Of a DNA stretch of 58,196 nucleotides, positions 4,900-58,164 are shown piece after piece. Below the pieces are notes generated by a model. The model did not search any database. It worked only from the letters and a program-made list of their open reading frames with translations, and was not told the DNA's origin. The stretch spans positions 1 through 58,196 of the forward strand of contig JASHSS010000159.1 in the NCBI GenBank assembly GCA_030038565.1, in the 5' to 3' direction. Every line of letters begins with the position of its first letter. Positions within the stretch are counted from its first letter, which is position 1. The stretch comes from Bryobacteraceae bacterium (GTDB lineage: Bacteria; Acidobacteriota; Terriglobia; Bryobacterales; Bryobacteraceae). The position numbers and the translations under genes were made by a program.

Positions 4900-5577
4900 C
4901 TAAAAGACCCCCGGCAGCAATCGCCAGCGCACCTGATGGCAATATTCGACATACCCGGACAAACTCTCTGCCAGAAATCGCTCTTCATCGAAAAGCCGCC
5001 AGATGAATGCGAACGTCGTGAGTGCGGATGCGAGAAGGCCCCGGTAGGAACCAAGTGCCAGCGGAGTCCCAAAAAAAGTCAGCAACAGTCCTGAATACAT
5101 CGGATGCCGCACAAGCGCATACGGTCCCGTGGAGATCACTTCCTGGTCCTGGGAGAGTTCGATTTTCGCAGAGGCAAATGTATTTTCTTTGGCGACACGG
5201 AAAACGACATAATAACCGAGCGCCAGGAGAACATCACCGGCCACGGTTGCGTAGAGCGGGACGTGTGACCATCCGAACCGATGGTCTAAGGCGGGCAAGA
5301 CCAGCGTGCCGAAGAATCCGACTGAGACAATCAGCATGGCGATCTTCTGTGCTACCCTCTTCTCCGATAACGGTCCACCGCTGGATCGACGCCTGAGCAG
5401 GGCGGGATCTTTTCTCATCAGGTAGGCCGTCATCAAAGTGGAAGCCGAAACGACAATGGTCAGGTAGACCCACGCCTGCCAGTAATCAATCGTATCTGCG
5501 GGAAGAAAGAGAAGCAGCCCCATCACCAGCACAACGGTGGCGACACGGAGCCATGTCTTGGCTTCGAAACTCTTCAC
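4900..5577 (-). CDS. isoprenylcysteine carboxyl methyltransferase (ICMT)/phospholipid methyltransferase family membrane protein
   Basis: Multi-TM protein with the ...YALVRHPMYSGLLLTFFGTPLALGS... motif typical of the ICMT family. GTG start. Confidence 0.75.
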   Translation of the reverse strand: MKSFEAKTWLRVATVVLVMGLLLFLPADTIDYWQAWVYLTIVVSASTLMTAYLMRKDPALLRRRSSGGPLSEKRVAQKIAMLIVSVGFFGTLVLPALDHRFGWSHVPLYATVAGDVLLALGYYVVFRVAKENTFASAKIELSQDQEVISTGPYALVRHPMYSGLLLTFFGTPLALGSYRGLLASALTTFAFIWRLFDEERFLAESLSGYVEYCHQVRWRLLPGVF

Positions 5578-5986
5578 GGATGCGCCCCGACGCTAACGGG
5601 TAGTGTACCGCCGCTCACAGTTCAGCGCCGGGGTGAGAATCAGATCTGGAGCCGGAGACGGCCTTTGTGGACGGCATGCATGTGCGCGCGGTTTGTGACC
5701 ATCTACAAGCCACAGCTCAAGGCCGTATCCGGAATCTGGATCATCAACATCCCACCTGGTCATGCCAATCGCTGCTGCCCAGGTCTTTTGGCCGGTGTGG
5801 GTCTGGATCGGGCATCCAGAAACCGGATGGCTCTTCCGCTTCCAGAATACCCGCACCGGTTGCCGCGTTGTGGTGCCCGTGGACGGCCGCCTGATGCTAA
5901 CAGGAGGCCTAAAGGGATTTGGTGGCCGTCATATTGCAGGGATATACCATATCCCCCTCCGGATGTGAAGATCAAGTAGCTTCAGG

Positions 5987-8900
5987 TCACCAACCGATGC
6001 GGACCTCCAACTGAATATTGCGGGAAGTGGCGGCGGTCGTAGCTGCACCAAAGCCTGCGTTCGCCGGCAGCGAGCGGCCGGAGTTTACGACCCCATTGGT
6101 GTACTCGGGGTTTTCCAAGGTCATGCTCGCCGGGTTATTGAAGGTAGCTGTAGTTGACCGGCCGGTGATGGGCTCGGCGTTTACTGCGTTGAAAATGTCC
6201 GTCCGGAACTCGAAGGTTTTGGCTTCTCTGAATTTCCAGAAGTGGAACCTGCGCACAACCGACACGTCCGGGATTATCTGGGGACAGTATCGCAGGTAAT
6301 TGCGCCCCGACTCCAGTTGGACGCTGCCGTAGCCCGGCCCTGTTACAGCATTTTCATTGAACCCGTCAAGCCGGGTGCCACACCCGCTGCCGAGATTGGC
6401 GCCCAGAATCGGGGCACCGGCAAAGTCCGGAGAACCGGTTATTTCGGTGTTGGTTCCGTTGGTTTGGTAGGAGTAACCGAGAGTATAGGCCGCTCCCGAC
6501 TGCGCCGTCAGAACCGAGGAAATCTGCCAATCCTTCGTGAGCTGGTGCACGAAACCGCCCCTGTCTGTAATGCCCGGGACGAACCAGGTTATGTTGGCCT
6601 TGAGGAAATTCGGTATCTTATCCAGGGTCGAATTCAGGGCCTCGTATTGCCCCTCATCGGACCGCAGCACGAGTGCGCCGTTCTGTAGCGTGTACCGTTG
6701 GATCAGGCCGGTGTTGCCCTTGAGCTCGATCCCGCGCGTATAGTTGGCCACGAAAGAGACGTTGTCCCTCAGCCGCCGGGTCACGCTCAACTGGATCGAG
6801 TGATACACGTCATAGAACTTCGTCGCGTTTTCCGCGATGGATTGAAGGCCTGGGTACGGCCGAAGCAGATTCGTCGTGTAAGACGTCGCCCCTGGAACGG
6901 TCGAAGTGCCGAGGGTCGGGTCCTGATACTGCGGCAGATAGGCCGTGCCGAGGGGCACCTGGTTCTCGAGTTGTTGCGATCCTCCCTGCGTCGCCCCAAA
7001 CCGGTTATACGCGTAGTAGCCCACATAGGACAGATCCATGACCATCTGGCCGGGCAGAGCTTTCTGGAAACCGGCATTCCACTGGAGGTTCGACGGGATT
7101 TTCGCGTTGTATTGGATAACAACCATCTGCCCCACCGGCTGCGGGCTCAGCCCCGCCTGGCCGATCGTCTGCAACTGCCCATAGTACAGGTTCTGATCCG
7201 TAACCGGTGTGCCGTTGGCGGCCACCACGCCCACGTTGCCCGGCGTCGAGAATACCGTGTTCCCGTCGGGACGGTCGTAGAACAGCCCCGTCCCGCCGCG
7301 GATCACCCAACCCGAGTTCCCCTTAACGTCCCACGCAAACCCGGCCCGCGGTCCGACGACCAAGGGCGACCAGGTGTAGTTCGTGTTGGCGATCCCGTGG
7401 CCCGCCTGAACAATCCCGTTCAGCGGATTGCCCACGCCCGGAATCGGGGTTCCGATCAACACCTGCGAGTTCGCGCCGCCCGACGTGATGACCTGTCCGG
7501 TGAGCGGATTCAGTGCGTCGCGTGTGTTGCCGGAGCATACCGTGGCGCCATTGGCGCAACCCGCGGTGTAGAGCACCTGCGAGTTTGCCCTTGAGAATTG
7601 GTTAGGGAAGAAGTTCGACTCCTGGTCAAATTGATCATATTGCGGCGTCATATGTGTGAACCGCATCCCGTAATCCAGGGTCAGGTGCTTGGTCACTTTC
7701 CAGTTGTCCTGGATGTAACCCTCCACGTTGTTATAGAGAAAGCTGCCTTCGACGTAGGTCGACTGCTGCAGGTACTGATCGAAGACCCCCAGGACCGCGT
7801 TCGAGAAACTGAACCCGCTGTCGAGGGGGTTGTTCGAGTCATTGCCGAAGTTCACGTAGCCCTGCCAGTACAAGTTCGAGACACCGCCGGCGCCCGTGTT
7901 CTGCGCTTTCCAACTGTGGTTGAGATAGGCCCCCATTTTGAGGGTGTGCTGCTCCCAGATCTTCGTCAAGCTGCCTGCTACGTCCTGCGTGTGGTTGACG
8001 TTCAAGTAGCTGGGGAAGATCAGGCTCGGCGGGCCGTTTGTAACCAGGCTGCCCCAGCCCCAGGCCGGCGGCATGTTCAACTCGCCGTTGCTATATTCCG
8101 GGGCCTTGCTTCCTTGGGCCTGCAGGACTCCGTAGGCGTAATAACCCGTATCCAGCTTGCCTGCATCCGGATACAAGTTCGGGAAGGCGCCCAGCGTATT
8201 GTTGCGGTTGGCCGCCGCATCCGCGAGGACGCCGGCGGGCGACCCGCCGCCCGCCAACTGGTTCTTGATCGTGCCGTAGGTCCCCTCGATGACCAACGTC
8301 GGGGAAATGACCAAGTCGACAGTAGCCGTAACGTTGTAAATGATGGGAATCGGAGTGTAATTATCGTTGAAGCCGGGGATTGTGCCCGGAATCACCACCG
8401 GGCGCTGGGTCTGCTCGCTTAACGCGGAGTTGAAGCGCAGTTTCGATGTCGGCGCGTAGTCGAGGTGGACAACCGGTTGCGTTGTTAACTGAAAGTACGA
8501 GGCCCCCTGTTCCGCATAATTGTAGGACAACCCCGGCGTTGACGGCAGATTCGGCAGCGGGTATTGGTTGAGCACCGCGACGCCCGGAGCATACAAACGA
8601 CTTTGCGGAATGATGTTGCCTGGGAAAGGCGCATTGTTGGTATTGTCAATGATCGCACCGATCGGCGCGCCTTGATTGTTGAGGCTCTGGGAGAAGTTGC
8701 CGGCCCGCTCGAGCGCCGTCGGCAAACGCAAAAAATTGCCTGTGTTGACAACTGTATTCGCCGGCCGGAACTCGTCCGCGACGAAGAAGAACAGTTTGTT
8801 TTTCCCGTTGATAACATGCGGGATCCACACCGGCCCCCCTATGGTGAAGCCGTAGGTGTCCGAGTAGCTATACGCCTGTGGGGTGCCGTTCTTCTGATTC

Positions 8901-9685
8901 GCCCACGACCTGGAATTCCAGTTCGAGCTCGTCCAAATACCGTAGGCCGCCCCATGTACTGAGTTCGTGCCGCTCTTGGTCACGGCCGTGACCTGGACGC
9001 CGCTCGCTCTGCCGTATTCCGCCTGATAGCTCAGCGTAATGGCTTTCACTTCACCGATCGACTCGATGTTCAGGCTCAGCATCTGGCCGTTGTTACCCGT
9101 GTCCATGGCTGAGACGCCGTTCATCATGAAGTTGTTCTCGTCCTGCGTGTCGCCAATCCGTGAGATGCCGCTCGTCTGCCCGGGACCAACGCCGGGAGTA
9201 AAGGCCACCGCATTCGCGAAGTTCGAGTGGCCGATTGGCATGCTTTCGATCGCAACCTGTTCGATAGCGGCAGAGCGCTCACCGCTTTGCGTCTGTACCG
9301 GTGTCGCTTCGGCGGTTACCGTAACCGTTTCGGTGTTTCCGCCTACTGCGAGCGTAATGAGCGGAACGCCCACATGATCACCGCCGGTAACCAGGATCCC
9401 CGTTATCCGCGAGATCTTGAATGCGGGAGCGGTGGCCTCGACGGTGTACGTGTCGGCCGTGATATCCGCGAAGACGTAGTCCCCTTCTTTGTTAGTGACG
9501 ACCGCGGCGCTCCTGTTCCCGTGCACTTCGCTGATGAGGACGACATGCACGTTGGGAACCACGCCTCCCGATGAATCGGCGACTCGTCCTGTTACCGTGC
9601 CGGTTGTAACCTGCGCCAGTGCTACCAGCGGCAACAAGGCCGCAGCGAAGCCGGCAAAAAAGATGCGGCAAGTTAAACGTATCAT
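5987..9685 (-). CDS. TonB-dependent receptor with N-terminal carboxypeptidase-regulatory-like domain
   Basis: The start is at the internal ATG (9685), preceded by GGAAAGGTGGAAGA. Signal peptide MIRLTCRIFFAGFAAALLPLVALAQ, then the TGTVTGRVADSSGGVVPNVHVVL CarboxypepD_reg-like motif. About 1230 aa of beta-rich sequence ends in an aromatic residue (...RIGW). Confidence 0.85.
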   Translation of the reverse strand: MIRLTCRIFFAGFAAALLPLVALAQVTTGTVTGRVADSSGGVVPNVHVVLISEVHGNRSAAVVTNKEGDYVFADITADTYTVEATAPAFKISRITGILVTGGDHVGVPLITLAVGGNTETVTVTAEATPVQTQSGERSAAIEQVAIESMPIGHSNFANAVAFTPGVGPGQTSGISRIGDTQDENNFMMNGVSAMDTGNNGQMLSLNIESIGEVKAITLSYQAEYGRASGVQVTAVTKSGTNSVHGAAYGIWTSSNWNSRSWANQKNGTPQAYSYSDTYGFTIGGPVWIPHVINGKNKLFFFVADEFRPANTVVNTGNFLRLPTALERAGNFSQSLNNQGAPIGAIIDNTNNAPFPGNIIPQSRLYAPGVAVLNQYPLPNLPSTPGLSYNYAEQGASYFQLTTQPVVHLDYAPTSKLRFNSALSEQTQRPVVIPGTIPGFNDNYTPIPIIYNVTATVDLVISPTLVIEGTYGTIKNQLAGGGSPAGVLADAAANRNNTLGAFPNLYPDAGKLDTGYYAYGVLQAQGSKAPEYSNGELNMPPAWGWGSLVTNGPPSLIFPSYLNVNHTQDVAGSLTKIWEQHTLKMGAYLNHSWKAQNTGAGGVSNLYWQGYVNFGNDSNNPLDSGFSFSNAVLGVFDQYLQQSTYVEGSFLYNNVEGYIQDNWKVTKHLTLDYGMRFTHMTPQYDQFDQESNFFPNQFSRANSQVLYTAGCANGATVCSGNTRDALNPLTGQVITSGGANSQVLIGTPIPGVGNPLNGIVQAGHGIANTNYTWSPLVVGPRAGFAWDVKGNSGWVIRGGTGLFYDRPDGNTVFSTPGNVGVVAANGTPVTDQNLYYGQLQTIGQAGLSPQPVGQMVVIQYNAKIPSNLQWNAGFQKALPGQMVMDLSYVGYYAYNRFGATQGGSQQLENQVPLGTAYLPQYQDPTLGTSTVPGATSYTTNLLRPYPGLQSIAENATKFYDVYHSIQLSVTRRLRDNVSFVANYTRGIELKGNTGLIQRYTLQNGALVLRSDEGQYEALNSTLDKIPNFLKANITWFVPGITDRGGFVHQLTKDWQISSVLTAQSGAAYTLGYSYQTNGTNTEITGSPDFAGAPILGANLGSGCGTRLDGFNENAVTGPGYGSVQLESGRNYLRYCPQIIPDVSVVRRFHFWKFREAKTFEFRTDIFNAVNAEPITGRSTTATFNNPASMTLENPEYTNGVVNSGRSLPANAGFGAATTAATSRNIQLEVRIGW

Positions 9686-10149
9686 TCTTCCACCTTTCCG
9701 TTGGTCAGCTCTATCCGAAGGCGCCAGCAAGGCCACACCCGCGAATGGCTTGATACAAGCGTGCAAACGCCTCGGCGGCGGGTCGTGAATACCGGCCGCG
9801 GTCCGCTCCGACGCTCAAGCACACAGATAGCGGCGGGTTCACGCCGATGGCGAGCGTTGTCAATTCACTGGCCGAACAAATGAGATCCCCTCGGCCCCCG
9901 CTCCATCCTGGACAAACCCATGATTCAGACGAACCGAGTCAACCCAACGACCTTGCCGGTAATTTGCTCATTCAGGTCCCCTCCTGTCGCTTTGGAAATG
10001 AGCCAGGCCCCGTTCGTGCGAGGGTAGCTTCGCCCGGCCCTGTGACCGTGTGTCGCCATCCCTGGATGGGATGCGATGTTATCACTTTTGTCAAATCATG
10101 TAAACCATGTAGATGTAACAATTCCCCTCCGATGGGAATTCACTTGATT

Positions 10150-11445
10150 CAGGTCGCCGTACCATCCAGTCCTCCGGCCGCAGACTGCTGACCGGCCCGA
10201 AGTCCGCCAGCGCTTCGAATGTGAGGCACGCGCTCTCTCCGCGCTCAACCATCGCCACCTCTGCACACCCCACGACGTCGGCCGCGAAGGCCCGCGCGAC
10301 AACCTCGTCATGGAGTTCAACCCAGGGCGAAACTCTGTGCGAGCGTCTCAAGCACGGCCCGCTGCCGCTCGACCAGGCCCTGTGCATCGCCAGCGAAGTG
10401 GCCGAGGCGCTCGATCGCGCTCACCGCACCGGCAATTATCCATCGCGATTTCAAGCCCGGCAATATCATGCTCACCTAAGGACAGGTCCAAGGTGCGGGA
10501 TTTCGGCCTGGCCAAGAAGCGCGCCAATCGCCGGGTACCGCTCTGAGGGGCTCGGTGATGCGGACCTTCACTTCGCCGCTCACCGGGGAAGGCTCGATTT
10601 TCGGCACGCTGCAATACATGGCGCCGGAACAGTTGGAGGGTCAGGATGCCGACGCGCGCTGCGATATCTCCTCTTTCGGCATAGTTCTTTATGAAATGGT
10701 CGCCGCGAGGAGTCCCTTCGAAGGGCAGAATGCGGCCGCCATTTTGGAGCGCGACCCGCCTGCTCCCGGCGATATCGCTCCGCCCGCGCTGGACCGTCTG
10801 GTATGCCGCTGTCTCGCCAAAGATCCCGAGGATCGCTGGCAATCGGCCTGCGATCTGATGGACGAACTGCCATGGATTGCCAGCGTTCCTGCGGCAACCG
10901 CCCCGGCGTCGCCGCAAACCAGCGGGACCGATAGCATTTGGCGCTCTTGCGCCCGAAACCGAAAGAGCTGCCGCTTGTGCGGTTCCAGGTGGCGCCCCCG
11001 GCGCAATTGGGAGCATAGGCGGCCATCCGATATCGCCGGACGGGCGGCGAATCCTCTTCTTCACTTATTTGAAAGATCAGTCCCAGCTCTGGATTCGTTC
11101 TCTCGACTGGTTGACGCCAGTCCCTTGCCTGGCACTGAGGGGATCGGAATGTTTGTGGCTTTCTGGTCGCCCGACAGCCGGTCCATCGCCTTTTTCGCCG
11201 ATGGCAAGCTGAAGAGGATATAAATCAGCGGACCCTCTGGCTGGGGGCCGGTTGCCGCGCAGTGCAACGTTGCGGTGGGCGCGGGCGGAACATGGAGCCA
11301 GGATGGTGTGATCGTGTTTTGAGGCCGGCCAGGACGGACTCTACCGGCTGCCTGCCAGCAAGGGAACTCCGGTGCCGCTCACCCGGCTGGACCTCTCCAA
11401 AAAGGAAAGGGCACATGTCTATCCCAGGTTCCCGGTGGCTATCAC
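10150..11445 (+). pseudogene. decayed Ser/Thr protein kinase fused to TolB/WD40-like beta-propeller
   Basis: Kinase motifs are spread over three frames. They include VAV..VLRPQTADRPEVRQRFE, LVMEF, GETLCERLKHGPLPLDQALCIASEVAEALDRAH and IIHRDFKPGNIMLT followed by TAA. KVRDFGLAKK, GTLQYMAPEQL, DISSFGIVLYEM and CLAKDPEDRW are also present. Propeller-like SPDGRRILFF, FWSPDSRSIAFFADGKL and GLYRLPASKGTPVPLTRLD follow in yet other frames. The Gly-loop N-lobe is missing and the 3' end is truncated at the neighbouring gene. Confidence 0.7.
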
Positions 11446-18070: not shown

Positions 18071-18145
18071 CGCTTCTGTTTCGGTTGTAGCATCGGAAGA
18101 GGAGCTTTTCTCCTGAAGACTTGCTGATATCTTGAGCCGCCGGAA

Positions 18146-18173
18146 TGTCAGGAAAATATCAGGATCGTGTCAG
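18146..18173. promoter_or_regulatory. three direct repeats T(G/A)TCAGGA phased at 11 bp; candidate OmpR-family response-regulator box
   Basis: TGTCAGGA at 18146, TATCAGGA at 18157 and TGTCAG at 18168, so the period is exactly 11 bp. The site is in the 139-bp divergent region between the DUF190-RND operon and the response-regulator gene. Confidence 0.4.
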
Positions 18174-18209
18174 TTGCAAAAACCCTTCGGCGCTCCTATA
18201 AATGAAATC

Positions 18210-18896
18210 GTGAACATCCTTGTGGTCGAGGACGAACGGAAAATGGCGCAGGCCCTGCAAGACGGCCTGGAAGCCGACGGCTACACGGTCCGCGTTGCCT
18301 ATACCGGCGAAGAGGGCTTTTACCTGATTCAAGCGCAAGCTTTCGATCTGGCGATTCTGGACGTTATGCTGCCCGGCCACGACGGGTTCGAGATTCTTGC
18401 TACGCTGCGGCGGCGCGGCGTGAGAACCCCGGTGCTGCTGCTCACTTCGCGCGATGCGGTGGAAGATCGTGTGCGCGGCCTCGATCTCGGCGCAGACGAT
18501 TACCTGGTAAAGCCGTTCGCTTTTCCCGAGTTGCTGGCGCGCATCCGCATGCTCTTGCGCAGAGGCCAGCCGGTTTCTTCCGCGCGCTTGAAACTGGCGG
18601 ACCTCGAAATGGACCTCGCGCAGCGTCTGGTGGTTCGGGCCGGCCAGAAGCTCGACCTGACCGCGCGCGAATTCGATCTGCTGGAATACTTCTTTTCGAA
18701 CAATGGGCGGGTGGTTTCGCGCGAAATGCTGGCGCGCGATGTATGGAAGGAGACCGCCCGGCAGACTCCGCTCGATAACGTCATCGATGCGCAAATGGTG
18801 CGTCTGCGCCGCAAGGTCGATGGGCAATCGGAGCACCGCCTGTTGCACACCGTGCGCGGCGTCGGCTTCGTCCTTCGAGAGGGCAACGAGACCTGA
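18210..18896 (+). CDS. OmpR-family response regulator, CusR/CopR-like
   Basis: GTG start giving VNILVVEDERKMAQAL. Receiver Asp in LAILDVMLPG, then LTSRDAVEDRVRGLDLGADDYLVKPFAFPELLARI and a winged-helix C-terminus. Confidence 0.9.
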   Translation: MNILVVEDERKMAQALQDGLEADGYTVRVAYTGEEGFYLIQAQAFDLAILDVMLPGHDGFEILATLRRRGVRTPVLLLTSRDAVEDRVRGLDLGADDYLVKPFAFPELLARIRMLLRRGQPVSSARLKLADLEMDLAQRLVVRAGQKLDLTAREFDLLEYFFSNNGRVVSREMLARDVWKETARQTPLDNVIDAQMVRLRRKVDGQSEHRLLHTVRGVGFVLREGNET

Positions 18897-41735: not shown

Positions 41736-41747
41736 AGGAGCGTGTGC

Positions 41748-42407
41748 ATGCAGGAATCCCCCCAATCCACGGTAGTCGTGGCCGACGATCAAGCCATCGT
41801 GCGGGAAGGTTTTGCGGCGCTCTGTACGGGAGCGGGCATGCAGGTAATCGCGGAATGCCCCGATGGCGCAGCCGCCTTGCAGGCGATCGCCACGTTCGAA
41901 CCCGATTTCGCCATCCTGGATCTGCACATGCCGGTGATGACCGGTGTGGACGTGGTGCGCCGGCTGCGCACCGCGGGATGCGCCACCAAGTTGCTGATCC
42001 TCTCCATCAGCCGTGAGGAGAACTGCGTGATGGAGGCCCTGCGCGCGGGCGCCGATGCCTACCTTTTGAAAGACGGTCCCTTCCGGCATCTCGTGGACGC
42101 CCTCAATTTCATCCGCGAGGGCGGCGTGTACGTGTCACCGCTGCTGCGCGGAGCCGGCCTGTTTACCAAGCCGGACCGCGCCGCCGAAGATCCTCTGGCG
42201 GCCCTCAGCCCGCGCGAAATGGAGGTCTTCTCCTATCTGGTCAGCGGGCTGCGCGCCAAGGACATCGCCGACCGGCTGGAGATCAGCCCCAAAACCGTGG
42301 ATACCTATCGCGCCAGCCTGATGCGGAAGTTGAATGTCCACGACCTGGTGGGCCTGGTGAAATTCGCCATCGAGCGGAATCTCACGAGCACTTCCGCGCC
42401 GCGTTGA
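41748..42407 (+). CDS. NarL/LuxR-family response regulator
   Basis: VVVADDQAIVREGF...FAILDLHMP receiver domain. The C-terminus LSPREMEVFSYLVSGLRAKDIADRLEISPKTVDTYR is a LuxR HTH. Confidence 0.9.
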   Translation: MQESPQSTVVVADDQAIVREGFAALCTGAGMQVIAECPDGAAALQAIATFEPDFAILDLHMPVMTGVDVVRRLRTAGCATKLLILSISREENCVMEALRAGADAYLLKDGPFRHLVDALNFIREGGVYVSPLLRGAGLFTKPDRAAEDPLAALSPREMEVFSYLVSGLRAKDIADRLEISPKTVDTYRASLMRKLNVHDLVGLVKFAIERNLTSTSAPR

Positions 42408-48938: not shown

Positions 48939-51194
48939 GTGCGATTTTTCCCCCTCCTGGTTCTGGTGCTGCCATTGGCCCAGGCCCAGGACGCCGGCGA
49001 AGTTCGCGGCCTGGTGGTGGACGGACGCGGCGGCGAGGCTCTTTCCAACGTCAGCGTTCAACTGGTCGGGGGAGCTTATCGCACCACTTCCGATAGCGCC
49101 GGACGCTTCCGCATCCCCGGTGTGGCGGCCGGCGATTACGTGCTCAACGTCTCCACGGTGGGCTACCACCTGGTCAAGCGGCCCTTCCACCTGAATCCCG
49201 GCGAGACCAAGGATTTCGAGGTGGTGCTCAACTCCGATACGCTGCGCCAGACCACCACCGTGGACGTCCAGGCGGGCCCTTTCGAAACCGCACGCCAGGA
49301 CAGCCCGGACACCCTGGTGCTGGCCGGCAACGACGCCAAAAACCTTGGCAGCGTGTTGGCCGACGATCCTCTCCGCGCCGTCCAAAACCTCCCCGGCGTC
49401 AGTTCCAACAACGATTTCGATGCCCGCTTTTCGCTCCGCGGCGCCGATTTCAGCCGCATCGGCCTGTACCTGGACGACGTCCTCCTGCACGCGCCCTTCG
49501 ACATGCTTCAGGGGGAGAACGCACAGGCTTCGGCGACCGCCTTCAATGGCGACATGGTGGAGGAGATGGAACTTCACGAAGGCGCCTGGCCGGAGCGCTA
49601 TGAAGACCGAACCGCTGGAATTCTCGACGTCCATACCCGCGACGGCAACCGCGATAACTTCACCATACGCGCTTCGGCAAGCGCCTCCAACGCCGGGGTG
49701 ATGGCCGAAGGCCCCCTGGGCAAAAGCAAGCGCGGTTCCTGGATTTTCGGCGTGCGCAAGAGCTACCTGCAATATATCTTCGCGCGCACCTTCCCCAATA
49801 CCACCGTGATCTTCGGCTTCGAAGACGCCCAGGGGCGCTTAACTTATGATTTGACCCCACACAACACCGTCACTCTGTATGTGCTGGAAAGTTACTCCAC
49901 CCTGGGCCGCTCGAATCTCTCTACCCTGGGCGTCAATTCGTTGAGCGGCGCGGCGTATCACTATACCTTTGCTAACCTGGGCTGGCGCTATTCCCCGGGG
50001 GAGAAGTTCTTAGTCTCCACCCACGCCGCCTGGATGCGCGAGAAATACGACGACACCAATCCCACCAGTCATCCCCTCGCCAACGGTTTCTACGGCGAAT
50101 GGGTAGCCAACAGCAACGCCACGTGGTACTGGAATTCGCGCACCCTGCTCGATTTCGGCACCTCCTTGCGCCAGATTCGTGAATCGGGAGATACCATCCA
50201 GTACAACAACGTGGTCACGAATCTTCAGTTACTGGACCACTCCAACGGAGACGCGCTCCATGCCGGCGGTTACGCCCAACAGTCCTGGACCGGGTTGGAG
50301 GGGCACCTGCATCTTTCGGCCGGCGCCCGCTGGGACCACTTCTCGATCGGCCAGTCCGCTCCGATTTCCGCGCAAGCCTCGGCTGCCTTCGTTCTGGGGC
50401 CTTCGACGCGCTTTCAGCTTGGCTGGGGCCAATACGCCCAATACCAGGAACTGGCGCTGCTCACCTCGCCACTCGGCGGCCACGGCTTGCTGCCATCGCG
50501 TTCGAACCAGGCCATTGCGGCGGTCGAGCAGCGCCTGGGTTCGCGCACCCGATTGCGCCTGGAATACTACAACCGCGCCGATCGCGACCTGGCCTTTCAG
50601 CCGCTGGATTACCCGCGCCTGTTATGGCCCAGTCTGAAAGTCTTCGCTCCGCCGCTCAACCCGCCATATGTCAATTCCGAACGCGGTTACTCGCGGGGCG
50701 CCGAGGTGTTCCTCCAGCGCAGCAGCGCCAATCGCTTCACCGGGTGGATCTCTTACGCCTACGGCCACGCCGAAATGACGGACGGAATCACGCTCTCGCA
50801 TTTCCCATCCGATTACGACCAGCGCCACACCGTCAACATATACGGCGGCTACCGGATTAAGCCCACCGTGAATCTGAGCCTGCGTTCCAGTTATGGCAGC
50901 GGCTTCCCCATTCCCGGCTATCTGACTAAGGTGGGTTCTTTGTATTACCTCACCCTTGTGCGCAATCAGTTACGTATGCCCGCTTACTCCCGCACCGACT
51001 TGCGCGTCAACAAATCCTGGACCAAGGCCAGGTGGAAGCTCACGCTCTATGGCGAAGTCGTGAATCTGACCAATCGCACGAACTACGTCTTCGACAGCTT
51101 CAATGGCTATAACGCCACGACCCACCAGGCCTACCTGACTCTCGACACCATGTTCCCCATCCTGCCTTCGGCGGGGATCGTCTTCGAAAAGTAG
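48939..51194 (+). CDS. TonB-dependent receptor with CarboxypepD_reg-like N-terminal domain
   Basis: Signal peptide, then EVRGLVVDGRGGEALSNVSVQL...RIPGVAAGDYVLNVS, a plug (NDFDARFSLRGADFSRIGLYLDDV) and a beta-barrel. Confidence 0.85.
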   Translation: MRFFPLLVLVLPLAQAQDAGEVRGLVVDGRGGEALSNVSVQLVGGAYRTTSDSAGRFRIPGVAAGDYVLNVSTVGYHLVKRPFHLNPGETKDFEVVLNSDTLRQTTTVDVQAGPFETARQDSPDTLVLAGNDAKNLGSVLADDPLRAVQNLPGVSSNNDFDARFSLRGADFSRIGLYLDDVLLHAPFDMLQGENAQASATAFNGDMVEEMELHEGAWPERYEDRTAGILDVHTRDGNRDNFTIRASASASNAGVMAEGPLGKSKRGSWIFGVRKSYLQYIFARTFPNTTVIFGFEDAQGRLTYDLTPHNTVTLYVLESYSTLGRSNLSTLGVNSLSGAAYHYTFANLGWRYSPGEKFLVSTHAAWMREKYDDTNPTSHPLANGFYGEWVANSNATWYWNSRTLLDFGTSLRQIRESGDTIQYNNVVTNLQLLDHSNGDALHAGGYAQQSWTGLEGHLHLSAGARWDHFSIGQSAPISAQASAAFVLGPSTRFQLGWGQYAQYQELALLTSPLGGHGLLPSRSNQAIAAVEQRLGSRTRLRLEYYNRADRDLAFQPLDYPRLLWPSLKVFAPPLNPPYVNSERGYSRGAEVFLQRSSANRFTGWISYAYGHAEMTDGITLSHFPSDYDQRHTVNIYGGYRIKPTVNLSLRSSYGSGFPIPGYLTKVGSLYYLTLVRNQLRMPAYSRTDLRVNKSWTKARWKLTLYGEVVNLTNRTNYVFDSFNGYNATTHQAYLTLDTMFPILPSAGIVFEK

Positions 51195-51447: not shown

Positions 51448-52341
51448 TTACTCCACCAGCGTCCAGGAATTGTCCGGGTCGAATCGCGTGATCGGCACGG
51501 GCGGCTTACCGGGAACGGGCTGGATGTCCTTTTGATAAACCACGCCTTCCTGGTTCACGATGAAAGTGTGAATTCCGGTGACTCCATACTCCGCCGGCCA
51601 GGCCACCAGGCCGAATCCGCCAATCAGCTTGCCCTTGACCAGGTAATTGTGCTCGCCTCCCGGTGCATTCGGCCCCTGGCCATCGAGAACCCGGAAATAA
51701 TAACCGTGGTAGGGTTTGGCGTCGCCCTTGCGGCTGCCGTCCCACGCGGCTTCGGCGAAGCGTTCGGGAATGAGCGGCTCGCTGGATCCCTTCCAGTACA
51801 GGCCATCCTGGCTGCCGGGTGTGCTCTTCAGCCGCGGAGTGTACTCCAGTAAACCGTCCCGGTCGCGATCCTCGGACGCGTATTTCATCTGGGCGGCTAC
51901 ATACCCGTGGCAAATCTCGATGGCGTCGAGTTCATCGGCCCCGATGTGCCGCGCCCGCATTTCGACCGGAGTTTGAGAAGCGTCAAAACTCCATTTGCCG
52001 TTGACTTTGACGATCGGCACCGGAAAGGGCCAGTCCTCGTCGCCGATCGAGAGGACAGCCCGGTTGGGGTTCATGGGAGAGATTTCGAGGTGGTGCTTGT
52101 CGCGCGCGAGGCGCGCGAATTCGGATTGCTCGTTGCGATCCTGCTCGGGCTTACCGGAAGTCAGAATGCCTTTCGCCTGTGGACCGACGATGGCCTCGAG
52201 GCGTCCGGCATCGTGCCCGGCGGCCGCATCGATCAGGGCCTGCGCGGCCGCCTCGGCCGAATCGAAACGTTCCTGGGCCATGGCGGCCGTGGCGCAAACC
52301 ATCGCCGCTGCCGCATATATACTGCACAATCTACCTGTCAT
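51448..52341 (-). CDS. DUF2950 family secreted protein
   Basis: Signal peptide. ...KPYHGYYFRVLDGQGPNAPGGEHNYLVKGKLIGGFGLVAWPAEYGVTGIHTFIVNQEGVVYQKD matches my recollection of DUF2950. Confidence 0.8.
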   Translation of the reverse strand: MTGRLCSIYAAAAMVCATAAMAQERFDSAEAAAQALIDAAAGHDAGRLEAIVGPQAKGILTSGKPEQDRNEQSEFARLARDKHHLEISPMNPNRAVLSIGDEDWPFPVPIVKVNGKWSFDASQTPVEMRARHIGADELDAIEICHGYVAAQMKYASEDRDRDGLLEYTPRLKSTPGSQDGLYWKGSSEPLIPERFAEAAWDGSRKGDAKPYHGYYFRVLDGQGPNAPGGEHNYLVKGKLIGGFGLVAWPAEYGVTGIHTFIVNQEGVVYQKDIQPVPGKPPVPITRFDPDNSWTLVE

Positions 52342-52344
52342 GGA

Positions 52345-53553
52345 CTATCGCCTCCCGCCGCCAAATCCGCCCGGGTGTCCGCCGCCGAAACCACCCATGC
52401 GCGCGCCCCCGCCGAATCCCCCAAAGCTGCGCTGCGCGCCCATGCTGCCAAAGCCGCGGTCGCTTTGCATGCGCGCCATCCCGCCATTGTGATACCCGCC
52501 GAAAACGCTGTGATTGTTTGTAAAGCCGCGCTGCTCGAATCCCGGACTTCCGAAGCGCTGCTGGGCCGGCATCGCCGCGCGGTTGAACGTCTCGCCGCGC
52601 CCGCCGAATCCGCCTTCACGGCCGACGGCGCCTCCGCGCGCGAACCGCTCGGCCACACCGGCATTGGCATACGGCACTCCCAGCCGATGGTAGGGATTGT
52701 GCATCCACACGGAATTGCCCAACATCCCTCCGCCGTAACCGTGGAAACCGAACCGATGGAAAAAGGAGCCATCGTTGTAAATAGTCCCGCCCCACCAGTT
52801 CGGGGACCATCCCCAACCGCCCCAGCCCCAGCCGCCCCAGCCTCCGAAATAGAGACCCAGGTCGATGCCCGGAAACCATCCGAAGCCAACATCGATACCG
52901 GGGTACAACAGCGCCGGATAGGCCCCCCAAACCGTTGGTCCCCAAACGTAGGCTGGGTTGTAATTGGGGACGTACCATTCATCCGGGTTAGCCGGCTCGA
53001 TGGTGATCGCGGGCTGCCCGTTCTCCTCCCGGGTGGTGACGGTCTCCTGCGGGGTGGAGTGCAAAATGCCCTTGGCCTCGGCCTGCGACCGCATACGCTG
53101 CACGGCCTGCATCACATCCGCCTGCTGGGCCAGGAAGGCATTACCAAGCTGGGTGGTCCAATTAATATTCGCGCTCAAGCGGCCGAGCACGTCAGGAAAC
53201 GCCACCAGGCCCTGGATGCTGGGGTCCCAGTTCTGCTCCTTGGCTTTATCCATGAGCTTGGAAGGTTTCCAATGGGAGTGGTCGTGCAGCCATTGTTCCG
53301 CTTCCGCGATCTCCATAGGGTAAGTCGAAGCTGCCAAAACCTCGGCCACCAGAGGGTCGGGATACAGGGCGATCGGCGCTACCAGGTCGTCCAACTGCTG
53401 AGGCGGGAGCGGCGCCGCCGGAGGGGGTGCGGCCTGAGAATATCCCGCGGCGGCCGCGCAGACGAACAATAGAACCGTGAAAAACGCCCCGCGGCAACGG
53501 TTTTCCGGATATAAGGACAACCATCGCACGGGGGCCGAAACTGGATTCACCAC
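52345..53553 (-). CDS. DUF3300 family protein with Gly-rich C-terminal tail
   Basis: LDDLVAPIALYPDPLVAEVLAASTYPMEIAEAEQWL. The GTG start is preceded by GAGGAG. The tail reads FGGFGGGARMGGFGGGHPGGFGGGRR. Confidence 0.8.
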   Translation of the reverse strand: MVNPVSAPVRWLSLYPENRCRGAFFTVLLFVCAAAAGYSQAAPPPAAPLPPQQLDDLVAPIALYPDPLVAEVLAASTYPMEIAEAEQWLHDHSHWKPSKLMDKAKEQNWDPSIQGLVAFPDVLGRLSANINWTTQLGNAFLAQQADVMQAVQRMRSQAEAKGILHSTPQETVTTREENGQPAITIEPANPDEWYVPNYNPAYVWGPTVWGAYPALLYPGIDVGFGWFPGIDLGLYFGGWGGWGWGGWGWSPNWWGGTIYNDGSFFHRFGFHGYGGGMLGNSVWMHNPYHRLGVPYANAGVAERFARGGAVGREGGFGGRGETFNRAAMPAQQRFGSPGFEQRGFTNNHSVFGGYHNGGMARMQSDRGFGSMGAQRSFGGFGGGARMGGFGGGHPGGFGGGRR

Positions 53554-54048: not shown

Positions 54049-56172
54049 ATGGCACATTTTCTCGCCAATTTGTTCTCGAGCGATTTCATCGCCCATCGGA
54101 TGTGCTACCGGAACGATGCCGGAGTTCTCTGGCTGAACGTTATTTCGGATTCGCTCACCGCTCTGGCCTATTACCTCATTCCGCTGCTGCTCTTTTACTT
54201 CATACGGCGGCGCAGGGATGTCGGGTTCCGGTGGATTTTCGCGGCCTTCGCTATTTTCATCCTGGCCTGCGGCACCACCCATGCGTTGGGCGCCCTCACC
54301 GTGTGGGTTCCGGTCTACCGGCTGGAAGGCGGGGTGAAAGCGATTACCGCGCTCGCCTCGCTGACCACATTTTTCCTGTTGGTCCGAATGATGCCGGAGA
54401 TCCTGGCTTTGCCCAGTCCCGCGCGGCTCGCGGCAGTGAACCGGCAACTCGCGGACGAGATTGAGGAGCGCCGCGCCGCCGAGACCGAAGTCCGCCGGAT
54501 GAACGAGGAACTCGAAGAGCGGGTCTTGCGGCGCACGGCGCAACTGACGGAAAGCGAAGGATCCTTCCGCCAACTCGCCGACGCTCTGCCCCAGATGGTA
54601 TGGATGGCCGGTTCGGACGGCCGAATAGAATACCTGAACCGCCAGTGGAGCGAGTACGCAGGAATCCTGCCCGGCGAAGCGGGTAGCCCCTCGTCGTGGA
54701 CCTCCATCGTACACACCGCGGACGCGCCCATGGCCGCGGAGCGCTGGCAGGCTTCGGTTGAAACGGGCGATCCCTTCGACGGCGAGTACCGGCTGCTGGG
54801 CAAAGACGGCGGCTACCGCTGGTTTCTGGGCCGCAGCCGGCCGGTGCTGGGCGAACACGGCAAGATTCTCCGCTGGTTCGGCACCTTCACGGATATCGAT
54901 GGCCAGAAGCGGGCGGCGGAAGAACTGAGCCATGCTCTGGAGGAATTGCGCATTGAAATGCGCCGCCGGCGTGACGTCGAGGATCAGTTGCTCCAGGCCC
55001 AGAAGATGGAAGCGATAGGCCGGCTGGCGGGCGGGGTGGCCCACGATTTCAATAACCTGCTGACGGTAATCCTGGGGTATAGCGAACTGCTGCGCGAGGA
55101 GAGCGCCGGGAACCCCACGGCGCTGGAGTTCGTCTCGGAGATCCGCAAATCCGCCGATCGCGCGTCATCCCTCACCAACCAGTTGCTGGCCTTCAGCCGC
55201 CGCCAGGTCTCCGTGCCCCGGGTGCTCGATCTGAACGAAGTGGTGTTGCAAATCGAGAAGATGCTCCACCGCATCATCGGCGAGGACGTCCAGCTAAACC
55301 TGCGGCTGGCCGATGGCTTGCCGTTCGTCAAGGTGGACCCCAGCCACATTGACCAGGTGATTATGAACCTGGCGGTGAATTCACGCGACGCCATGCCTCA
55401 GGGAGGCCGATTGACTCTGGAAACCGCGGCTGTGCGCTGGTCCAGCGAGTATGGGGATGGGCATCCCAACCTGCCGGCCGGCGATTACGTCATGCTGGCG
55501 GTGAGCGACAACGGCTGCGGCATGGATGCGGTGACGCGCGGGCGGCTGTTCGAGCCGTTTTTCACCACCAAGGAGAAAGGCAAGGGCACCGGCCTGGGCC
55601 TGTCGATCGTCTATGGCATAGTGAGGCAATCGGGCGGCGACATTCTGGTGTATAGCGAACCCGGCCAGGGCACGGTGTTCAAGATCTACCTGCCGGCCGC
55701 CGCCGGAGGGCCGGAGGGCGCCCCGGCCCCAACCGAGCCAGCCCGCCCCGAGACTGCGGGCGCGAACACCGCGGAAGGCCCAGCCGGCCCGCCACAGGCT
55801 GCCAAAACCATCCTGCTGGTGGAGGACGAAGTCCAGGTGCGCAGCCTGACCCGGACCATGCTGTCCAAGCTCGGCTACCAGGTGATCGACGCCGGTTCGG
55901 CGGCCGAGGCGCTGGAATTGCTCGACCGCACCAGCGAGCCGATCTCGCTGCTGCTGGTCGATATTGTGATGCCGGAGATGAGCGGCCCGCAACTGGCTCA
56001 GCGGGTGCTGGCCTTGCGCCCGGCAATTCCTGTGCTGTTCATGTCCGGCTACACCGACGGCATGGTGGAGCAGGGCCTGCTCGACTCCGGCACGCCGTTC
56101 ATCCAGAAGCCGTTTACGGCCGAAGGTTTGGCGCAGCGGGTGCGCGAGGCGCTGGCCGGCAGCGAGGGATAG
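54049..56172 (+). CDS. hybrid sensor histidine kinase/response regulator with ETR1-like (ethylene-binding-domain-like) membrane N-terminus, PAS, HisKA, HATPase_c and REC
   Basis: 3-TM N-terminus [50 protein letters not shown] ([27 protein letters not shown]). H-box [18 protein letters not shown] and [12 protein letters not shown] (ILLVEDE...[13 protein letters not shown]). Confidence 0.9.
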
Positions 56173-57615: not shown

Positions 57616-58164
57616 CTACTGGTTCTTGTGGGCCAGCCGGCTGCAGGCAGTTTCGGCGCCGCTGGGGTCGATGGCTACGCTGCCTTCCTCGATATGGATG
57701 ATCTTGCCTTCTTTGTCGATCACGAATGTAGCCCGGTTGGCCACTCCCGCCTGGGGGATCAGCACGCCGTAAGACTTGGACACCTCCCGGTTCGCGAAAT
57801 CGCTCAATAGCGGGAAGGAAGCATTCACCTTGGCGGCGAACTCTTTCAACGAGAAGGTGTTGTCCGTGCTGATTCCGAAGATCCTGGTTTCCGCGGTGTC
57901 AAACTTCGAATTCGCAATACCAGCCTGGTATGCCAATAGTTCCTTCGTTCAACCACCGCTGAAAGCCGCCGGGAAGAACGCCAGGACGACGTTGTCCTTC
58001 CCCCGGAACTCGGAAAGCGTGACCTTCCCGCCCGCGGTGGACGGCAAGGTGAAATCCGGCGCCATATCGCCCTCTTTGAGCTGGGTGTGCGGCGGCTGGA
58101 TATTTTGAGCCAGAAGGTTGACGGACAGGATTGCCCCGGCAACCGCGAATTGTAGGAATCGCAT
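57616..58164 (-). CDS. secreted AhpE/PrxQ-like peroxiredoxin with in-frame TGA (candidate selenocysteine) at the peroxidatic position
   Basis: Track ORFs 57949..58164 and 57616..57936 are in the same frame and are separated only by TGA at 57949-57951. The joined protein reads ...[44 protein letters not shown]...IFGISTDN...FPLLSDF...GVANRATFVIDKEG. Signal peptide MRFLQFAVAGAILSVNLLAQ. RBS GGGAGGG. Confidence 0.65.
57914..57933 (-). promoter_or_regulatory. candidate bacterial SECIS hairpin
   Basis: The minus-strand RNA GCAUACCA-GGC-UGGUA(U)UGC begins 15 nt after the UGA. The apical loop has GG, and an outer CGAA/UUCG pairing can extend the stem. Confidence 0.4.

Follow-up and report, generated by a model that had tools for sequence, protein, structure and literature searches.

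Ethylene-binding domains (EBDs) are made of three transmembrane (TM) helices and carry seven conserved residues required for ethylene binding (PMC6682694, PMC11819568). In Arabidopsis ETR1, C65 and H69 chelate the copper cofactor, and polar bonds link D25 to H69 and to the helix-3 residue K91, which transmits the signal (PMC11971883, PMC11819568). Putative ethylene receptors have already been described across bacterial phyla in reviews and primary papers. Examples are the EBD histidine kinases SynEtr1 (Slr1212) of Synechocystis and GeiEtr1/2 of Geitlerinema, in which the seven residues are conserved, and AzoEtr1 of Azospirillum brasilense Sp7. AzoEtr1(1-130) binds 14C-ethylene and disruption of the gene abolishes binding by the cells (PMC11819568, PLoS Genet 2025); the D35A and C75A mutants are non-functional, and biofilm formation is lower after ethylene treatment or loss of AzoEtr1 (PMC11819568). 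Here we analyse a gene of the Bryobacteraceae bacterium contig JASHSS010000159.1 (Acidobacteriota, assembly GCA_030038565.1), whose whole stretch of 58,196 nucleotides is called the window below. Judging from its sequence, the product of this gene is probably a hybrid sensor histidine kinase that is bound to the membrane and belongs to the bacterial ethylene-receptor type.

A preliminary description, made without database searches, had compared the N-terminus of the protein with ETR1 and proposed a profile search against the EBD family. This search returned a strong, full-length match: residues 26-121 correspond to Pfam PF25487 (ETR1_N, Ethylene receptor 1-like, N-terminal domain) with E = 9.4e-36 and 122.4 bits (cutoff 27), covering model positions 2-97 of 97. 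By this measure the N-terminus genuinely belongs to the ETR1_N family, far beyond chance. The three hydrophobic helices described earlier are also borne out. Kyte-Doolittle hydropathy in 19-residue windows gives peaks at about residues 27-51, 57-87 and 94-115, and an AlphaFold2 model of the N-terminal part, built from a 34-sequence alignment, places helices at 24-54, 61-83 and 90-120 and starts a further, cytoplasmic one at 124 (mean predicted local distance difference test score, pLDDT, 88.3). The first loop (RRRRD) is strongly positive and predicted to be cytoplasmic; following the positive-inside rule, an N-out, C-in topology is thus predicted, which fits the three TM segments.

Since TM segments can align spuriously, and since the ETR1 sequence of the preliminary description was not a database record, it could be argued that the likeness to ETR1 reflects chance similarity of hydrophobic helices, or that the open reading frame (ORF) is not a real gene. 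This explanation is refuted by the profile score and by the size of the family. A hidden Markov model (HMM) built from 34 EBDs and searched against 1.84 billion representative proteins (clusters at 50% identity) gave 10,740 matches at E <= 1e-3 and 5,245 at E <= 1e-30. Moreover, the best related locus, L001 from a Bryobacteraceae soil metagenome-assembled genome (MAG), holds a full-length ortholog with 75% identity over 708 amino acids (aa). The GC content at third codon positions (GC3) of the ORF is 0.81, as is usual for coding frames of the window (window GC 63%), and its downstream domains are all intact.

The gap-free alignment with ETR1 helices 1-2 announced in the preliminary description was reproduced. 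Window residues 32-78 share 21 of 47 positions with the ETR1 sequence of the preliminary description and 20-23 of 47 with seven plant fragments taken from databases, again without relative gaps. Several of these fragments are named by their source 'ethylene receptor' or 'ethylene response sensor 1', and they are 85-91% identical to the ETR1 N-terminus first used. The numbering of the latter agrees with the residues D25, F33, S34, C65, H69, K91, H107 and P110 named in PMC11971883 and PMC11819568. Window residues D34, Y41, I44, P45, I71, C74 and H78 align with ETR1 D25, Y32, I35, P36, I62, C65 and H69 at a constant offset of +9, as had been proposed, and the database plant receptors align in the same way. 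Wang et al. in 2006 reportedly found Y32, I35, P36 and I62 of ETR1 to be among the seven residues needed for ethylene binding. The helix-3 motifs noted earlier, K-(A/V)-(I/L)-T-A and P-(E/D)-(I/L)-L, are present as K97-A-I-T-A and P116-E-I-L, K97 being the equivalent of ETR1 K91. Here the offset is +6, because the loop between helices 2 and 3 is three residues shorter than in plants. Thus all residues known to hold Cu(I) and bind ethylene in ETR1 and AzoEtr1 are present in the window protein, from which we infer that it would bind ethylene.

These positions are also strongly maintained in the family. In 149 representative homologs from the profile search, aligned to the domain HMM and at most 50% identical to one another, D34, Y41, I44, P45, I71, C74, H78 and K97 are each conserved in 146-149 sequences, K97 in all of them. 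Conservation of at least 98% at the binding-site positions argues for purifying selection on the site.

Behind the EBD homolog, the protein continues with a charged linker, a PAS domain, a kinase core and a receiver (Table 1). The linker is strongly hydrophilic, keeps an L/R/E pattern in homologs, and in the AlphaFold2 model begins as a helix (residues 124-139, at the end of the model) with pLDDT >90. Catalytic residues of kinase and receiver are intact: H332, N444, D487-x-G489 and G513-x-G515-x-G517 in the former, D593, D638, S666 and K687 in the latter. The Pfam scan found no GAF or phytochrome-like domain in the protein.

Table 1. Features of the kinase gene and of neighbouring genes in the window (coordinates on the 58,196-nucleotide stretch)
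Feature	Position	Strand	Remarks
Complete ORF, EBD-PAS hybrid histidine kinase, 707 aa + stop	54049..56172	+	ATG start; intact; PAS, HisKA, HATPase_c and receiver after the N-terminal domain
Extracytoplasmic N-terminal tail (predicted), aa 1-25	54049..54123	+	H16 and C19 in FIAHRMCY; homolog alignment
Ethylene-binding-domain homolog, Pfam ETR1_N, aa 26-121	54124..54411	+	Three TM helices; Pfam, residues, hydropathy, AlphaFold2
EBD residues D34, Y41, I44, P45, I71, C74, H78, K97	D34 54148-54150; C74 54268-54270; H78 54280-54282	+	Residue conservation
Charged helical linker, aa 124-170	54418..54558	+	Helix 3 to PAS; presumed signalling helix
PAS domain, aa 173-285	54565..54903	+	PAS_3 2.8e-19, also PAS_4, PAS, PAS_9; aligns with the AzoEtr1 PAS
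HisKA dimerisation/phosphoacceptor domain, aa 324-386	55018..55206	+	His332 (55042-55044) in H-box AHDFNNLL
HATPase_c catalytic domain, aa 430-551	55336..55701	+	N box NLAVNSRDA, G1 DNGCGM, G2 GTGLGL
C-terminal receiver, aa 588-699	55810..56145	+	E592/D593, phosphoacceptor D638 (55960-55962), S666, K687
DUF3300 (402 aa, Gly-rich C-terminal tail) and DUF2950 (297 aa) pair	51448..53553	-	Divergent, upstream of the kinase gene
Sigma-54 activator, 528 aa	47297..48886	-	AAA+ Sigma54_activat domain
AhpC/TSA peroxiredoxin-like gene	57616..58164	-	One in-frame TGA at 57949-57951; reads ...FFPAAFSGG[TGA]TKELLAY...

AzoEtr1 offers the most direct comparison. We located its locus by tblastn against plasmid and chromid records; the ORF (L060, 2971..4548) encodes 525 aa, the published length of AzoEtr1, and a response-regulator gene overlaps its end. 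AzoEtr1 (OH82_RS30505) shares with the window protein, in the same order, a tail with an H-x2-C motif, the three-helix EBD, a charged linker, PAS, HisKA and HATPase. Against window residues 10-551 it is collinear with 31% identity (BLASTP, E 4e-69), the EBD being about 49% identical, and its D35, C75, H79 and K98 correspond to window D34, C74, H78 and K97. AzoEtr1 lacks a fused receiver, and the overlapping single-domain regulator gene comes after it, whereas in the window protein the receiver forms the C-terminal part and no regulator is adjacent. AzoEtr1 comes from the Alphaproteobacteria; the window protein is from the Acidobacteriota.

Arabidopsis ETR1 and the other subfamily 1 plant receptors possess a homologous three-helix domain with the seven binding residues and the K91 equivalent, and the hybrid-kinase layout with a C-terminal receiver resembles that of ETR1. 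In plant receptors of the ETR1, ERS, ETR2 and EIN4 types, however, a GAF domain follows the EBD directly, where the window protein has its PAS domain, and the disulfide-dimer pair Cys4/Cys6 contrasts with the single tail cysteine C19. The plant proteins reside in the endoplasmic reticulum rather than, as would be the case here, in the cytoplasmic membrane, and the CTR1/EIN2 pathway is absent from bacteria. The window kinase core is also of the bacterial CckA-like type, unlike that of plant receptors. CckA-type hybrid kinases provide the closest kinase core and receiver (NCBIfam CckA, 411 bits; PDB 5idj, E 4e-58), but their sensor part is entirely different and we have no evidence of a cell-cycle role. 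Assignment of the core to CckA itself was rejected, as 411 bits stand against an equivalog cutoff of 1000. Among the cyanobacterial receptors, GeiEtr2 also joins EBD, PAS and a C-terminal receiver (PMC6682694). Cyanobacterial receptors carry GAF/cyanobacteriochrome photosensory modules and integrate light; the window protein has no such module.

The output part had been presented earlier as PAS, HisKA, HATPase and receiver, setting the protein apart from plant receptors. Pfam confirms these domains, but the combination is not unusual, PAS with a histidine kinase, with or without a receiver, being common in bacterial members. In a sample of 80 proteins (79 from the 149 best profile matches, plus the window protein), ETR1_N was found in 80/80, HATPase_c in 69/80, PAS in about 51/80 and a receiver in 16/80, while a few carried GAF or HWE/HisKA_2/HisKA_3 kinases. 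EBD, PAS and histidine kinase is thus the dominant architecture of the family, and the window layout is mainstream. Similarly, EBDs are not limited to cyanobacteria and a few other phyla, as had been suggested: they form their own Pfam family with thousands of bacterial members. One bacterial homolog (P0136) is already named by its source as an 'Ethylene receptor 1-like N-terminal domain' protein. The novelty at first attributed to the gene is also reduced by AzoEtr1, an EBD-PAS-kinase of the same core layout that already binds ethylene and controls biofilm formation (PMC11819568). The kind is therefore known, through a curated Pfam family, a described bacterial distribution and a validated proteobacterial EBD-PAS-kinase. 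What is new is an uncharacterised acidobacterial member with a fused receiver; in the literature that we searched, no paper connects ethylene receptors with Acidobacteria, Solibacter or Bryobacter.

Relatives were found at 59 loci in species-representative genomes (L001-L059). About 32 of them are assigned to Acidobacteriota (Bryobacteraceae, Solibacteraceae, Terriglobia, Sulfotelmatobacter), a count made by record titles and biased by the query. The other loci include Methylobacter, Teredinibacter, Bowmanella, Flavobacterium, Chthoniobacter, Binatus and Bdellovibrionaceae. The nearest relatives are soil MAGs of Bryobacteraceae and Solibacteraceae (order Bryobacterales). Together with the ETR1_N match, the conserved residues and the topology, these relatives support the earlier proposal of an acidobacterial-type kinase as a candidate ethylene sensor. 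In four Terriglobia/Bryobacteraceae MAGs (L008, L014, L016 and L021, at about 5300-11300), the EBD kinase lies between other large histidine-kinase genes; one of these lies 4-32 bp upstream of it and, in L016, another one lies 4 bp downstream. This arrangement suggests multi-kinase operons, and nothing comparable is seen in the window.

Three other Bryobacterales/Candidatus Solibacter MAGs (L002, L005 and L006) encode close relatives of 554-601 aa in which EBD and linker are fused straight to HisKA-HATPase-receiver, with no PAS; their EBDs are 62-64% identical to that of the window protein. In this lineage the PAS domain is thus a dispensable insert. PAS domains are often the primary sensors of histidine kinases, and that of the window protein is well supported. 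It could be supposed, then, that PAS is the real sensor, of redox state, a metabolite or light, and that the three-helix N-terminus is mainly a membrane anchor or dimerisation module, the absence of PAS from some relatives and its presence in several copies in others reflecting modular reshuffling. We consider this very improbable. A mere anchor would not hold eight site residues at 98-100% across the 149 representatives, and the PAS-less relatives couple the EBD straight to the kinase, which implies that the EBD is itself an input. Moreover, neither the LOV-type NCRFL motif nor any other motif for a cofactor occurs in the PAS sequence.

Bacterial EBD proteins display a further feature, a near-invariant F-M-P-H-G-x-C-Y-L-W in the extracytoplasmic tail directly before helix 1 (L001-L059, and AzoEtr1 at L060 2971..3050). 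Its histidine, H16 in the window protein, is kept in 146/149 and its cysteine, C19, in 149/149 of the representative homologs, the window variant reading FIAHRMCY. This His-x2-Cys motif falls outside the Pfam ETR1_N model. C19 aligns with the Cys4/Cys6 dimerisation region of plant receptors, and the conserved histidine is without a plant counterpart. The single N-terminal cysteine of cyanobacterial receptors is discussed in PMC6682694; no function of the tail histidine is stated in the literature we examined. It is conceivable, though we think it improbable, that the acidobacterial and other non-cyanobacterial EBD kinases constitute a mechanistically distinct branch, in which the bacteria-specific His-x2-Cys would act as a redox switch or offer another site, for metal or for entry, and these abundant soil heterotrophs would read ethylene or another alkene as a sign of waterlogging or anoxia and not of a plant host.

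According to the model that we favour, the kinase would sit as a dimer in the cytoplasmic membrane, N-terminus out and C-terminus in. C74 and H78 of helix 2 would coordinate Cu(I), while D34 of helix 1 would position H78 and bridge to K97 of helix 3. Once it has diffused into the membrane, ethylene or a small alkene like it would bind Cu(I), and the resulting movement of helix 3 would be passed by the charged helical linker to PAS and to the DHp/CA core. Autophosphorylation at H332 would change, and likewise phosphotransfer to D638 of the fused receiver, from which the signal could go on to an unlinked Hpt protein or response regulator, or to some other partner. By analogy with AzoEtr1 and plant receptors, ethylene would most likely switch an active receptor off. 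The physiological cue could be soil, peat or root-derived ethylene.

The protein could also be truly homologous to ETR1_N and have a Cu(I) site, yet respond to a signal other than ethylene, such as a different small unsaturated or pi-acceptor ligand (propylene, isoprene, acetylene, CO), or copper or redox status itself. Plant receptors bind other olefins and strained alkenes, more weakly. Among the thousands of clusters, ethylene binding has been shown only for cyanobacterial members (SynEtr1; Geitlerinema cells) and for AzoEtr1, and the invariant extra periplasmic His-x2-Cys could add metal chemistry. We nevertheless hold another signal to be unlikely: the ethylene-binding residues of ETR1 are all kept and nearly invariant, and every EBD with the seven residues that was tested bound ethylene (PMC6682694, PMC11819568).

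Several points weigh against ethylene sensing as proposed for the window protein. Binding of Cu(I) and ethylene is, for this protein as for all acidobacterial members, deduced from homology. A second input, and the dominant one, could come through the PAS domain, and the direction of regulation, on or off by ethylene, comes by analogy only. A sequence search of the PDB matched the kinase and receiver parts and no EBD, so that no solved EBD structure could validate the AlphaFold2 model; Foldseek comparison of the model with the PDB yielded nothing significant (best E 2.2). The genomic surroundings suggest no output either. Six flanking window proteins, searched by tblastn against the 59 related loci, gave no match. 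No Hpt or stand-alone receiver was present among the window ORFs scanned, none adjoining the kinase, and these ORFs likewise include no gene for copper delivery, copper transport or ethylene metabolism.

ORFs within 4 kb of homologs, once clustered, revealed lineage-specific patterns only (extra histidine-kinase genes in some Terriglobia, unrelated genes in Methylobacter), and no operon partner can be proposed from the neighbour searches. The kinase's own receiver found no second match in the window by tblastn, and in the Pfam scans receiver domains otherwise occur only in two distant two-component systems, at 18132-18896 and 41742-42407. A scan for promoters and terminators around the kinase gene gave nothing above background, and no RNA family of Rfam was detected in the window at gathering thresholds.

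The kinase gene is preceded by divergent genes for DUF3300 and DUF2950 proteins and a TonB-dependent-receptor-like protein, and followed by genes for a PpiC-type peptidyl-prolyl isomerase, a small zinc-ribbon protein and the peroxiredoxin. Further upstream are the sigma-54 activator, a thioredoxin-reductase-like protein, a ClC channel and a HisKA_3/LuxR two-component pair, as well as a MacB-type permease, a molybdo-hydroxylase, an RND efflux system and an OmpR-type two-component system. The DUF3300/DUF2950 pair adjoins the TonB-dependent-receptor-like gene (CarboxypepD_reg/Plug, 48939..51194) and is absent beside EBD kinases elsewhere. The first 220 residues of the sigma-54 activator are without a Pfam match at E <= 1e-5, hence no receiver domain lies there, and this part could be an uncharacterised sensory region.

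A lone in-frame TGA breaks the peroxiredoxin-like gene. When this codon is read as Cys, it falls in the alignment exactly on the peroxidatic Cys of the solved peroxiredoxin 2ywn (FYPAAFTQVCTKE), and because of this coincidence the gene probably encodes a selenocysteine-containing peroxiredoxin and is not a pseudogene. A hairpin (AUACCA-GGC-UGGUAU core) begins about 20 nt past the UGA; its folding energy is unremarkable (z = -1.3), and Rfam reported nothing at this place.

The finding opens no new category and would not surprise a specialist; its use lies in biochemistry and soil ecology. With its compact order of EBD, PAS, kinase and receiver, the protein is a candidate for binding, structural or biosensor work. 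If ethylene is bound, Acidobacteriota of the order Bryobacterales, abundant and poorly cultured bacteria of soil and peat, would join the organisms that perceive it. [quoted passage not shown] Ethylene perception by the window protein, if true, would lend weight to the view, already published, of ethylene as an ancient signal between kingdoms and in soil and not strictly a plant hormone.

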